Shown here in pieces: positions 20,415 to 40,198 of a DNA stretch of 64,000 nucleotides. The stretch is taken from assembly GCA_000002445.1 (NCBI GenBank), contig CP000069.1, forward strand, positions 384,001-448,000, in the 5' to 3' direction. The translations under genes were made by a program, and so were the position numbers. Source of the DNA: Trypanosoma brucei (taxonomy: Eukaryota). The notes under the pieces are model-generated. The model ran no database searches and was not told where the DNA came from. It was given only the letters and a program-made list of their open reading frames with translations. Numbering within the stretch: position 1 is the stretch's first letter; each line of letters opens with the position of its first letter.

Positions 20415-20560
20415 AAAGCTGCAATTAAAAGAAAACGAAGTTCTGAAAAAATAACGTAAAGAAAAACGAAACGTTGTAAAAGATACAAACAACTAAAAAA
20501 AGTAAAAAAAAAGAACTAAAGCAAAAAAAGGAAAGGAAAAAAGAAAATAGCAAACAAATA
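20415..20560 (-). promoter_or_regulatory. long polypyrimidine tract immediately upstream of the CysRS ATG
   Basis: The + strand is A/G-rich (aaaagaaaacgaag...ggaaaggaaaaaagaaaatagc). The ORF track translates it as an F/S/T-rich pseudo-N-terminus. Confidence 0.6.
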
Positions 20561-20803
20561 AAAAAACACACGCGTGGCTAAGACGGCATCAGCACTCACT
20601 GTACCGGAGCGCAGCACATTCTGCTATGCACATACCACACGCACATGCCCTCCAGGTGTATTACAGTTCCACTACACAGCCGCTCGCCGAAGAAGATAGA
20701 ATTGAGGGGGAGTAAAAAGGGAAGGAAATAAAAACAAAAACCAAGCAATAATGAACGAGAAACACCAATCACAAGGTGAAGCGCAACCCAAGACCACGCC
20801 ACC

Positions 20804-22156
20804 TCACTGGTGTGGGACCAGCCTGGCCGCCTTAGTGGGTGGGTTGGTGGAGCAATGATACTCAACGGACCCAATCAAAATGGGTATGCACTTATCCAGT
20901 GGCACAGTAATCGGCACAGAGGGACCGCTGCAGCTCCTGCTTAGTGGGTAGATTATTTGTGTAAGGTTGCTTGCGCCACATGTGGCGATCACTGAGCCGA
21001 CGCCGGTAGTCTGGACGCACTCGCCAGTGGGGAAGGTGGCATGTGAGCAGCCTTTGGTACAACCCTTGCCCTCGCAGAAGTCCTGTGTAAAAGTTGCTGA
21101 AGGCGGCGGCGGCGGTGGTGGTGGTGGAGTGGGACCTCCAACAACTGCGGAGGATACGGCCTGATTCATGAGACATTGGTTTGTGCCCTTCTCGATGCGG
21201 ATGTAGCCGTCCTCGCCCCACATGTTGCTCCACGAGTTTTTGATGATCCAGTAGGGTGGATTGCTATTATCATTGTAACCAACGAGGAGCACACCATGAT
21301 CCAGTTGCTCGGAGGTGCATGAAGTCAGAATCCCACCGTTATAGTCCATAAAACTTGTGGCGTCAACGGCAATAGCAAGGGGACCGTTTTCTGCCAAATA
21401 CGCGGCGATAGCGTCCTCATCCTGCGGTAAGTCAACATGGTCTGTTATCGCAGCACCGATCTCGTGACCATTCATCTGGCACTGTGGCTGCTCACCATTC
21501 CCAGAAACATAGGGATAGCTCGCCTCCGTGAATACGTTTCCACCGTTTGAATTTACTATCCAGTTGAAGGCATTGTCCATCAGCCCACCATTACAACCTG
21601 AATCAATGGTATCACATGACACTAGCATCTGCTCCGAGAGGGATACGAGAGGATTTCCTGCCACCTGCCACTGCCCTTCGATGTTGCCGATAGTTGAAAA
21701 GGCCCAGCACGAGCCGCACTGACCCTGATCCTTCACTGGGGTCACTGCTCCCTTCTCACGCCAATCCACAGCTGCAGGAGCACGGCCAGTGGTTACGTTC
21801 ACCGTCTTGCGTAGCCGCTTCTGCGCAGCTGCAAAGTAGGACGCGCCGTTACGGTAGCGTGCCCTGAACTCTTCACGTGTCATATCCGAGAAGGGTGTCA
21901 CACCAAACGTTGCGTATGGGTTCGCCGCAGCTTGAATCTTCGCCTGCTCCATATTTTCCTCAAAGGCACGGAAGCGGAATGCTTCCTCCTTAGCATCCTT
22001 GTACACCTTGCCGTACTTCTTCTTGAACGCAGCAAAACGCATCTCCAATGACTCCTCCACGTGGAGCGACCCGAGTGCGACAGACGCAAGGCACGCTGCC
22101 ATAGCCAGCAAGACAACGGGGAGACGTACAAAACGCACCATTTCTGTTCGAGGCAT
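20804..22156 (-). CDS. CATL: cathepsin L-like cysteine peptidase precursor (clan CA, family C1), copy 1 of 11, 450 aa
   Basis: It has a signal peptide ([27 protein letters not shown]), a propeptide, the active-site Cys in [11 protein letters not shown], His in [10 protein letters not shown] and Asn in [16 protein letters not shown] 9-Pro hinge and a Cys-rich C-terminal extension follow. The ATG is verified (CAT at 22154-22156). The 75 upstream track codons are 5' flank read-through from a GTG. Confidence 0.9.
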
Positions 22157-22467
22157 CTTTCGGCTGTTTATGTTTGGATGGACCTTCCTTGCGCGTGCAA
22201 ACGGTAAAAAGTAATATAAATGGGGAAAAGCTTTGTGATGCAGAAGAAGTGAGTCACGACAACACTTACACAGCACGTGAGTTGCAAAGAGGGAGTTACA
22301 GCAATGACGTCCAAGGAATAAATAAAAAAACACACGCGTGGCTAAGACGGCATCAGCACTCACTGTACCGAAGCGCAGCACATTCTGCTATGCACATACC
22401 ACACGCACATGCCCTCCAGGTGTATTACAGTTCCACTACACAGCCGCTCGCCGAAGAAGATAGAATT

Positions 22468-36667: not shown

Positions 36668-38017
36668 TCACTGGTGTGGGACCAGCCTGGCCGCCTTAGT
36701 GGGTGGGTTGGTGGAGCAATGATACTCAACGGACCCAATCAAAATGGGTATGCACTTATCCAGTGGCACAGTAATCGGCACAGAGGGACCGCTGCAGCTC
36801 CTGCTTAGTGGGTAGATTATTTGTGTAAGGTTGCTTGCGCCACATGTGGCGATCACTGAGCCGACGCCGGTAGTCTGGACGCACTCGCCAGTGGGGAAGG
36901 TGGCATGTGAGCAGCCTTTGGTACAACCCTTGCCCTCGCAGAAGTCCTGTGTAAAAGTTGCTGAAGGCGGCGGCGGTGGTGGTGGTGGAGTGGGGCCTCC
37001 AACAACTGCGGAGGATACGGCCTGATTCATGAGACATTGGTTTGTGCCCTTCTCGATGCGGATGTAGCCGTCCTCGCCCCACATGTTGCTCCACGAGTTT
37101 TTGATGATCCAGTAGGGTGGATTGCTATTATCATTGTAACCAACGAGGAGCACACCATGATCCAATTGCTCGGAGGTGCATGAAGTCAGAATCCCACCGT
37201 TATAGTCCATAAAACTTGTGGCGTCAACGGCAATAGCAAGGGGACCGTTTTCTGCCAAATACGCGGCGATAGCGTCCTCATCCTGCGGTAAGTCAACATG
37301 GTCTGTTATCGCAGCACCGATCTCGTGACCATTCATCTGGCACTGTGGCTGCTCACCATTCCCAGAAACATAGGGATAGCTCGCCTCCGTGAATACGTTT
37401 CCACCGTTTGAATTTACTATCCAGTTGAAGGCATTGTCCATCAGCCCACCATTACAACCTGAATCAATGGTATCACATGACACTAGCATCTGCTCCGAGA
37501 GGGATACGAGAGGATTTCCTGCCACCTGCCACTGCCCTTCGATGTTGCCGATAGTTGAAAAGGCCCAGCACGAGCCGCACTGACCCTGATCCTTCACTGG
37601 GGTCACTGCTCCCTTCTCACGCCAATCCACAGCTGCAGGAGCACGGCCAGTGGTTACGTTCACCGTCTTGCGTAGCCGCTTCTGCGCAGCTGCAAAGTAG
37701 GACGCGCCGTTACGGTAGCGTGCCCTGAACTCTTCACGTGTCATATCCGAGAAGGGTGTCACACCAAACGTTGCGTATGGGTTCGCCGCAGCTTGAATCT
37801 TCGCCTGCTCCATATTCTCCTCAAAGGCACGGAAGCGGAATGCTTCCTCCTTAGCATCCTTGTACACCTTGCCGTACTTCTTCTTGAACGCAGCAAAACG
37901 CATCTCCAATGACTCCTCCACGTGGAGCGACCCGAGTGCGACAGACGCAAGGCACGCTGCCATAGCCAGCAGGACAACGGGGAGACGTACAAAACGCACC
38001 ATTTCTGTTCGAGGCAT
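36668..38017 (-). CDS. CATL: cathepsin L-like cysteine peptidase precursor, copy 10 of 11 (449 aa)
   Basis: Tandem repeat unit with an 8-Pro hinge. One synonymous Leu codon change (TTG to CTG) lies in the signal peptide. Confidence 0.9.
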
Positions 38018-38428
38018 CTTTCGGCTGTTTATGTTTGGATGGACCTTCCTTGCGCGTGCAAACGGTAAAAAGTAATATAAATGGGGAAAAGCTTTGTGAT
38101 GCAGAAGAAGTGAGTCACGACAACACTTACACAGCACGTGAGTTGCAAAGAGGGAGTTACAGCAATGACGTCCAAGGAATAAATAAAAAAACACACGCGT
38201 GGCTAAGACGGCATCAGCACTCACTGTACCGGAGCGCAGCACATTCTGCTATGCACATACCACACGCACATGCCCTCCAGGTGTATTACAGTTCCACTAC
38301 ACAGCCGCTCGCCGAAGAAGATAGAATTGAGGGGGAGTAAAAAGGGAAGGAAATAAAAAAAAAAACCAAGCAATAATGAACGAGAAACACCAATCACAAG
38401 GTGAAGCGCAACCCAAGACTACGCCACC

Positions 38429-39778
38429 TCACTGGTGTGGGACCAGCCTGGCCGCCTTAGTGGGTGGGTTGGTGGAGCAATGATACTCAACGGACCCAAT
38501 CAAAATGGGTATGCACTTATCCAGTGGCACAGTAATCGGCACAGAGGGACCGCTGCAGCTCCTGCTTAGTGGGTAGATTATTTGTGTAAGGTTGCTTGCG
38601 CCACATGTGGCGATCACTGAGCCGACGCCGGTAGTCTGGACGCACTCGCCAGTGGGGAAGGTGGCATGTGAGCAGCCTTTGGTACAACCCTTGCCCTCGC
38701 AGAAGTCCTGTGTAAAAGTTGCTGAAGGCGGCGGCGGTGGTGGTGGTGGAGTGGGGCCTCCAACAACTGCGGAGGATACGGCCTGATTCATGAGACATTG
38801 GTTTGTGCCCTTCTCGATGCGGATGTAGCCGTCCTCGCCCCACATGTTGCTCCACGAGTTTTTGATGATCCAGTAGGGTGGATTGCTATTATCATTGTAA
38901 CCAACGAGGAGCACACCATGATCCAGTTGCTCGGAGGTGCATGAAGTCAGAATCCCACCGTTATAGTCCATAAAACTTGTGGCGTCAACGGCAATAGCAA
39001 GGGGACCGTTTTCTGCCAAATACGCGGCGATAGCGTCCTCATCCTGCGGTAAGTCAACATGGTCTGTTATCGCAGCACCGATCTCGTGACCATTCATCTG
39101 GCACTGTGGCTGCTCACCATTCCCAGAAACATAGGGATAGCTCGCCTCCGTGAATACGTTTCCACCGTTTGAATTTACTATCCAGTTGAAGGCATTGTCC
39201 ATCAGCCCACCATTACAACCTGAATCAATGGTATCACATGACACTAGCATCTGCTCCGAGAGGGATACGAGAGGATTTCCTGCCACCTGCCACTGCCCTT
39301 CGATGTTGCCGATAGTTGAAAAGGCCCAGCACGAGCCGCACTGACCCTGATCCTTCACTGGGGTCACTGCTCCCTTCTCACGCCAATCCACAGCTGCAGG
39401 AGCACGGCCAGTGGTTACGTTCACCGTCTTGCGTAGCCGCTTCTGCGCAGCTGCAAAGTAGGACGCGCCGTTACGGTAGCGTGCCCTGAACTCTTCACGT
39501 GTCATATCCGAGAAGGGTGTCACACCAAACGTTGCGTATGGGTTCGCCGCAGCTTGAATCTTCGCCTGCTCCATATTTTCCTCAAAGGCACGGAAGCGGA
39601 ATGCTTCCTCCTTAGCATCCTTGTACACCTTGCCGTACTTCTTCTTGAACGCAGCAAAACGCATCTCCAATGACTCCTCCACGTGGAGCGACCCGAGTGC
39701 GACAGACGCAAGGCACGCTGCCATAGCCAGCAAGACAACGGGGAGACGTACAAAACGCACCATTTCTGTTCGAGGCAT
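38429..39778 (-). CDS. CATL: cathepsin L-like cysteine peptidase precursor, copy 11 of 11 (449 aa; first copy in transcription order)
   Basis: Tandem repeat unit with an 8-Pro hinge. Its 5' flank loses repeat homology at about 40056, so it has a distinct upstream region. Confidence 0.9.
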
Positions 39779-40198
39779 CTTTCGGCTGTTTATGTTTGGA
39801 TGGACCTTCCTTGCGCGTGCAAACGGTAAAAAGTAATATAAATGGGGAAAAGCTTTGTGATGCAGAAGAAGTGAGTCACGACAACACTTACACAGCACGT
39901 GAGTTGCAAAGAGGGAGTTACAGCAATGACGTCCAAGGAATAAATAAAAAAACACACGCGTGGCTAAGACGGCATCAGCACTCACTGTACCGGAGCGCAG
40001 CACATTCTGCTATGCACATACCACACGCACATGCCCTCCAGGTGTATTACAGCTCCAAGATATAGCATCCTGTGTGGGATGTTTTATTTTCTTTTTTAAT
40101 AAAAAAATTTTGATGTTTTTGTTTATTTTTATTTTTATTGATGCTGCCTTTTTTATTGTTATTTGAAGAGAAGAAAATTACTTTTTATTGCATATTAA

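Follow-up and report, generated by a model that had tools for sequence, protein, structure and literature searches.

Near-identical units with mosaic site patterns in the eleven-copy cathepsin-L gene array of Trypanosoma brucei chromosome 6

A stretch of 64,000 nt of Trypanosoma brucei DNA (assembly GCA_000002445.1, contig CP000069.1, positions 384,001 to 448,000; hereafter the window, with positions counted from its first letter) contains a tandem array of genes for cathepsin-L-like peptidases. The array lies on the minus strand and consists of eleven direct repeats, with units of 1764 or 1761 nt plus an additional ∼111 nt. The homology between units starts at position 20556 and ends at 40052. 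An earlier reading made from the letters of the DNA alone (the sequence-only reading) had also counted eleven copies and had set the limits at 20560–40056, very close to those found here. The start-to-start spacing of the repeats is successively 1764, 1764, 1761, 1761, 1764, 1764, 1761, 1761, 1761 and 1761 nt, and each repeat bears a single minus-strand open reading frame (ORF), of 450 or 449 aa when counted from the first ATG. Tandem Repeats Finder, used with a longest period of 500, did not report the array, which was found by a direct-repeat search combined with a listing of the ORFs.

The five protein variants specified by the array were exact matches to the TREU927 entries AAZ11659–AAZ11669, which lie on a contig of 1,618,915 bp and correspond one-to-one with copies 1–11 and in the same order. 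The locus is the TbCatL (brucipain/rhodesain) array Tb927.6.960–1060, located on chromosome 6 of T. b. brucei TREU927. CATL is the published name of Tb927.6.960–1060, and chromosome 6 has been reported to hold eleven tandem copies of brucipain. TbCatL, or rhodesain, is a validated drug target and a virulence factor of the sleeping-sickness parasite. A search against Pfam revealed the domains I29 (PF08246, residues 41–97, E = 3.9e-12), Peptidase_C1 (PF00112, E = 5.4e-74) and DUF3586 (PF12131, residues 342–412, E = 1.9e-24), the last being a Cys-rich C-terminal extension. The papain catalytic residues Gln19, Cys25, His162 and Asn182 of the mature enzyme (Q146, C150, H287 and N307 of the precursor) are present, and their codons are invariant across the eleven copies. 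The best matches among solved structures were pro-rhodesain (7AVM, E = 1e-219) and rhodesain (2P7U and 6EX8), all from T. brucei rhodesiense; the structure of a Leishmania CPB enzyme (6P4E) was a clear homologue. By these similarities, the units are genes for cathepsin-L-like (C1A) peptidases with a hinge and a C-terminal extension.

The units are strikingly uniform. Over the 1627 columns common to all copies the mean pairwise identity was 99.70%, any two units differing at 0–11 sites, and the non-coding parts were as homogeneous as the coding ones. In contrast, the nearest homologue in another species, that of T. congolense, showed only 71% protein identity, although it shares the poly-Pro hinge. 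Since coding and spacer sequences are equally uniform within the array while the homologue of the other species is so distant, the pattern is that of concerted evolution, as the sequence-only reading had claimed. The same conclusion had been reached by phylogeny for this array, named Tb43 (Tb927.6.1060), with an inter-/intraspecific divergence ratio of 217.6 (Jackson 2007). In that work the array was classed as invariant (dS = dN = 0.0000), and Lima et al. (2012) called the copies identical.

The copies are not identical, however. The table of variable sites comprised 18 variable positions grouped in 13 sites or site clusters. Those in the coding sequence (CDS) were found at nt 46, 57, 201, 557–566, 853, 1023, the hinge, 1176, 1233 and 1235, and those in the spacer at −214, −276, −342 and −402; the 411-nt spacer therefore has 4 variable sites, as compared to 14 variable positions (9 sites or clusters) in the 1353-nt CDS. 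The spacer sites −214, −342 and −402 are linked, and −276 is a singleton. The changes that alter the protein are M19I (copy 4), S186F together with N189G (copy 7) and P412L (copies 8 and 9, which differ from each other at one site). Combined with the length of the hinge, these amino-acid changes give rise to five protein isoforms, which corrects the description of the copies as identical.

The poly-Pro hinge occurs as three alleles which, read on the coding strand, are (CCA)4(CCG)4CCT in copies 1, 3 and 6 (allele A), (CCA)5(CCG)3CCT in copies 2 and 7 (allele B) and (CCA)4(CCG)3CCT in copies 4, 5 and 8–11 (allele C), their order along the array being A, B, A, C, C, A, B, C, C, C, C. At Gly341, the codon GGT is confined to the copies with allele A (1, 3 and 6); since the genes are on the minus strand, this codon, previously described as downstream, sits 5′ of the hinge within the gene and is downstream of it solely by + strand numbering. 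At a single-nucleotide polymorphism (SNP) in the flank (positions 22371, 24135, 25899 and their equivalents), copies 1, 2, 5 and 6 have A and the others G; Glu67, which belongs to the I29 propeptide, is encoded by GAA in copies 1, 2, 6 and 11 and by GAG in the others. Both assort independently of the hinge, and each of them yields the four gametes when paired with hinge length. All the details given in the sequence-only reading held, although its list covered only part of the variable sites.

Ten of the sites are parsimony-informative. Failures of the four-gamete test were observed for 12 pairs of these sites, 8 of which do not involve the slippage-prone hinge length. The Hudson-Kaplan minimum indicated at least two exchanges inside the unit (Rm ≥2), and any single tree would need parallel mutation at no fewer than four sites. 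As a null model, 18 mutations were placed on a coalescent tree without recombination (11 sequences, each of 1764 nt) in 20,000 simulations. Incompatible pairs appeared in 1.1% of the runs, and at least 8 such pairs in 0.1%. Long exact matches between distant parts of the array were also detected: a tract of 2747 nt (20608–23354, the same as 29422–32168) is shared by units five positions apart, and a tract of 2556 nt (24833–27388, the same as 35405–37960) by units six positions apart. A clean duplication of a block of five units was rejected, since only units 1 and 6 are identical; the pairs 2/7, 3/8, 4/9 and 5/10 differ at 4–9 sites.

The same locus was then compared in three further assemblies, those of T. 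b. equiperdum IVM-t1, T. b. gambiense DAL972 and T. equiperdum OVI. In IVM-t1 the array has eight units, nearly uniform, as opposed to the eleven of TREU927. In DAL972 (FN554969.1) it is interrupted by two 100-N gaps and includes three gene fragments; within the stretch retrieved, the positions concerned are 12370–12469, 16526–16625 and 16626–17673. In addition, the last full copy of DAL972 is preceded by the sequence that in TREU927 and IVM-t1 is unique and marks the 5′ edge of the array, which suggests a mis-join or a duplicated edge. In the OVI assembly, made from short reads, the whole array is collapsed into one contig of 1743 nt (CZPT02001703.1), about one unit. The DAL972 and OVI cases show that assemblies of this array are unreliable, so the caution expressed in the sequence-only reading about collapse or expansion of the array was justified.

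When the TREU927 units were aligned with the eight units of IVM-t1 and three units of DAL972, the variable sites could be polarised into two sequence types. One of them, type X, is fixed in IVM-t1 and DAL972 and has the states 201G, TTC GGC TGC GGT at 556–567, 853T, 1023C, 1176G, 1233C, 1235T, −214C and −342T; type Y has the alternative states. The TREU927 copies are a mixture of both. All diagnostic sites of copies 1 and 6 are of type Y; those of copies 8 and 9 are of type X, with the exception of a patch encoding Ser and Asn at residues 61 and 64 of the mature enzyme (Ser61/Asn64). Copy 7 has the X-like version of this patch (Phe61/Gly64) together with Y states at 853 and 1176–1235. In the OVI contig, sites 201, 853, 1023 and 1176 and the patch are in the Y state, and sites 1233 and 1235 in the X state; sequence errors of TREU927 are thus not the origin of the Y variants, which are real. 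At the protein level, the strains taken together show all four combinations of residue 412 with the 61/64 type, and hinges of 8, 9 and 10 Pro. Together with the 12 four-gamete failures, so rare in simulations without recombination, this mixing of two types across copies upholds the earlier claim that the units are mosaics. The patterns support an exchange between two pre-existing sequence types, which may have occurred either within one array or between homologous chromosomes.

Our preferred explanation, in which we have good confidence, is that the locus is an array of eleven TbCatL copies whose units are homogenised, and whose variants are shuffled, by homologous recombination between misaligned or allelic units. 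The array forms part of a long run of genes on the same strand, and multiplication of the unit would raise the dose of an abundant lysosomal protease. Trypanosomes lack gene-specific promoters. Gene multiplication would therefore be the route to a higher protease dose, in keeping with established knowledge and with Jackson (2007). Gene conversion and unequal crossover between units would generate the ∼99.7% likeness in coding and spacer sequences alike, and the same exchanges would reshuffle the few existing variants, rendering the copies of TREU927 patchworks of types X and Y. At the run of CCA and CCG codons, hinge length would shift by slippage or misalignment as well. The sequence-only reading had proposed an ongoing exchange inside the array. 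Exchange as such was supported; that it takes place within the array rather than between homologues, and that it continues today, are possibilities that go beyond the evidence.

Several observations weigh against this explanation. The similarity between neighbouring copies was not significantly higher than that between distant ones (Mantel r = −0.03, P = 0.54; adjacency permutation, P = 0.13), so that the array bears no positional signature of local exchange. The per-copy combinations of states come from a single assembly of the Sanger era, covering a 19.5-kb repeat with units 0–11 sites apart, and, since the organism is diploid, allelic variants could have been interleaved.

A feature of copy 7 that might point to a different process is the patch mentioned above, in which 5 nucleotide differences fall within 10 nt. 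It changes Ser186 to Phe and Asn189 to Gly, which correspond to residues 61 and 64 of the mature enzyme, in the region of the S3 subsite; the other ten reference copies specify Ser61/Asn64. In sequence, the mature domain of copy 7 is that of the crystallised active rhodesain except for the engineered N172A change. Published structural work has shown that Phe61 of rhodesain borders the S3 cleft and is in contact with the P3 group of inhibitors. Cruzain has Ser61/Ser64 and, among the trypanosome enzymes, no residues of the segment vary more than 61 and 64; in T. cruzi, position 61 is occupied by Ser as well as by Phe. No record was found when the copy 7 protein was looked up by exact match among the indexed contigs.

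It could be envisaged that selection keeps both versions of the S3 pocket, Ser61/Asn64 and Phe61/Gly64, the patch of copy 7 being an island of divergence protected from homogenisation. The clustering of 5 of the ∼14 differences between X and Y within 10 nt has a chance probability of ∼1e-5, and four of these five differences alter the protein, at positions that are the most variable of the segment and one of which contacts inhibitors. Each version of the pocket was found in at least two Trypanozoon strains; copies 8 and 9, otherwise of type X, have the Y-type patch at precisely this spot. However, Phe61/Gly64 is the only form present in the eight units of IVM-t1 and in all DAL972 copies seen, so keeping both forms is not general. 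Moreover, the Phe61 codon is TTT in copy 7 but TTC in the other strains, and a form present in one copy of eleven could simply be drifting to loss or fixation. Selection for both pockets is thus a rather unlikely account of the patch. The more far-reaching idea that the array is not a pure dosage device, but maintains two functionally distinct S3-pocket forms through a 10-nt island that selection holds against homogenisation, is doubtful. If it were true, TREU927 would mostly express an enzyme differing, at an inhibitor-contacting residue, from the rhodesain used in structure-based drug design. Whichever process gave rise to the patch, the Phe61 pocket used in inhibitor studies is present in one of the eleven reference copies, which could matter when compounds designed on rhodesain are applied to T. 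b. brucei.

Under a further alternative, the mosaic, and perhaps the count of eleven, would be partly a product of the assembly, reads from near-identical units or from the two homologues having been joined wrongly. Apart from that of IVM-t1, every other assembly of the array retrieved was gapped or collapsed, DAL972 with its two 100-N gaps, three fragments and repeated 5′ edge sequence before the last copy, and OVI with its single 1743-nt contig. Misplaced reads could also produce the identity of copies 1 and 6 and the exact tracts of 2.5–2.7 kb shared by units five to six positions apart. Nevertheless, independently sequenced strains also have Phe61/Gly64, Leu412, the Y-type silent sites and hinges with 8, 9 and 10 Pro, as well as recombinant proteins with all four combinations of the 61/64 type and residue 412. 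A second series of accessions, in which AAX80354 equals copy 4 and AAX80357 equals copy 7, suggests a record at the level of single clones, which would argue against the interleaving of alleles. We therefore regard misassembly as improbable and infer that exchange, rather than misassembly, is the source of the per-copy combinations. As to the number of units, Mottram and colleagues are said to have estimated, in 1989, >20 copies per cell, a number that would be compatible with 11 in each haploid genome. The literature search yielded no usable copy-number estimate from that 1989 work, nor a long-read reassembly of TREU927. Jackson et al. (2010) have warned that the number of assembled units can be arbitrary.

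Finally, a very recent amplification followed by repeated mutation, with no exchange, would agree with the very low divergence between units and with a hinge whose trinucleotide run, being prone to slippage, could have changed in length several times, but it is extremely improbable since tandem arrays of this gene are present at the syntenic locus in other trypanosomes, with copies that cluster by species, 8 incompatible SNP pairs remain when the hinge is left out (a number reached in 0.1% of the simulations), at least 4 sites need parallel hits, and both states of most sites are common to other strains.

Several comparable arrays are known. The published Tb43 (Tb927.6.960–1060) is the same locus, with the same proteins in the same order, eleven copies and concerted evolution. 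The papers on Tb43 describe the copies as identical or invariant; in contrast, 18 variable positions, five isoforms and a clear recombinant pattern were found here. Recombinant mosaics were reported in 31 of 35 variable T. brucei arrays by Jackson et al. (2010), a table from which Tb43 is absent because it was counted as invariant. Arrays of the type of ISG65 (Tb927.2.3270–3320), described in that work, are likewise tandem and polycistronic, with copies that are recombinant with one another; they are, however, far more divergent than the TbCatL array, in which divergence is ∼0.3% and the mosaic is seen at about ten informative sites. The cathepsin-L-like CPB genes of Leishmania, reported in 19 copies in L. 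mexicana and in 8 in L. major, also form tandem arrays and specify a C-terminal extension, but they belong to another genus and have another hinge. Cruzipain of T. cruzi is also encoded by tandem cathepsin-L genes at a syntenic position; its subtypes show 55–60% identity to the TbCatL protein, form distinct clusters and have a poly-Thr hinge instead of a poly-Pro one. The CPB copies of Leishmania include stage-regulated variants with truncated extensions. Unlike these, the TbCatL array showed no variants with a truncated extension. Both the array, with its copy number and concerted evolution, and mosaicism as a general phenomenon are already known, so that the finding is correct but ordinary; what the publications found do not describe is the fine-scale pattern in this particular array. 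The features of the locus are collected in Table 1.

Table 1. Coordinates of the TbCatL array and of its parts in the window
Feature	Position	Strand	Remarks
Whole tandem array	20556..40052	-	Repeat spacing, edges and exact protein matches; equals Tb927.6.960-1060 (TbCatL, brucipain)
Partial spacer 3′ of copy 1, 248 nt	20556..20803	-	Twelfth copy of part of the spacer; 1-3 sites differ from internal spacers
Copy 1 CDS, 450 aa	20804..22156	-	Hinge A; Y type at all sites; identical to copy 6
Copy 1 poly-Pro hinge	21101..21127	-	CDS nt 1030-1056; same tract in every copy is A, B or C
Spacer between copies 2 and 1, 411 nt, representative of ten internal spacers	22157..22567	-	
Copy 2 CDS, 450 aa	22568..23920	-	Hinge B
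Copy 3 CDS, 450 aa	24332..25684	-	Hinge A
Copy 4 CDS, 449 aa	26096..27445	-	Hinge C; unique M19I in the signal peptide (27389)
Copy 5 CDS, 449 aa	27857..29206	-	Hinge C
Copy 6 CDS, 450 aa	29618..30970	-	Hinge A; whole unit identical to copy 1
Copy 7 CDS, 450 aa	31382..32734	-	Hinge B; only copy with Phe61/Gly64 (S186F, N189G)
Copy 7 patch	32169..32178	-	GAT TTT GGC TGC GGT versus GAT TCA GGT TGC AAT; 5 nucleotide differences in 10 nt
Copy 8 CDS, 449 aa	33146..34495	-	Hinge C; P412L (33264) and two linked silent sites
Copy 9 CDS, 449 aa	34907..36256	-	Hinge C; protein same as that of copy 8 (P412L at 35025)
Copy 10 CDS, 449 aa	36668..38017	-	Hinge C; unique silent change at Leu16 (37972)
Copy 11 CDS, 449 aa	38429..39778	-	Hinge C; transcribed first among the genes of the array
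Sequence upstream of copy 11, 274 nt	39779..40052	-	Common to internal spacers; homology stops at 40052

Both ends of the array carry the same stretch of ∼111 nt (20556–20666 and 39942–40052), and this part of the unit is therefore present twelve times. Exchange between short direct repeats at the flanks may have given rise to the founding duplication; alternatively, conversion may have spread outwards. An A-rich tract of low complexity (20495–20566) touches the 3′ edge of the array, and a (TA)n microsatellite is located ∼300 nt past the 5′ edge (40349–40375), another one being present at 47806–47830. The representative 411-nt spacer contains two pyrimidine-rich tracts in the sense strand. In every unit the reading frame is open for 75 codons before the ATG (22157–22381 and equivalent positions), something expected by chance with a probability of ∼0.03 per unit, and the ORF listing therefore gave proteins of 524–525 aa starting at a GTG. 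We know of no evidence that this upstream extension is used.

On the 3′ side, the array is flanked by genes for a Cys-tRNA synthetase (tRNA-synt_1e) and two metacaspases (Peptidase_C14), and on the 5′ side by a 931-aa ORF, a hydroxyacylglutathione-hydrolase-like (HAGH-like) gene and an AAA proteasome ATPase. The genes follow one another in the same order in T. b. gambiense DAL972 and T. b. equiperdum IVM-t1. The 64,000-nt window has 26 ORFs of 250 aa or more, all of them on the minus strand; as expected, a run of genes on one strand fits a single polycistronic unit. Scans for tRNA genes and for Rfam families over the whole window (1–64000) gave no match. The two metacaspase genes, at 13321–14394 and 16174–17217 of the minus strand, specify proteins of 357 and 347 aa and are themselves in tandem, forming a two-gene array beside that of the cathepsins. 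From about residue 71 of one and 61 of the other to the C-terminus the two proteins differ at a single residue, while their N-termini are largely unlike, so that the boundary of homogenisation is abrupt.

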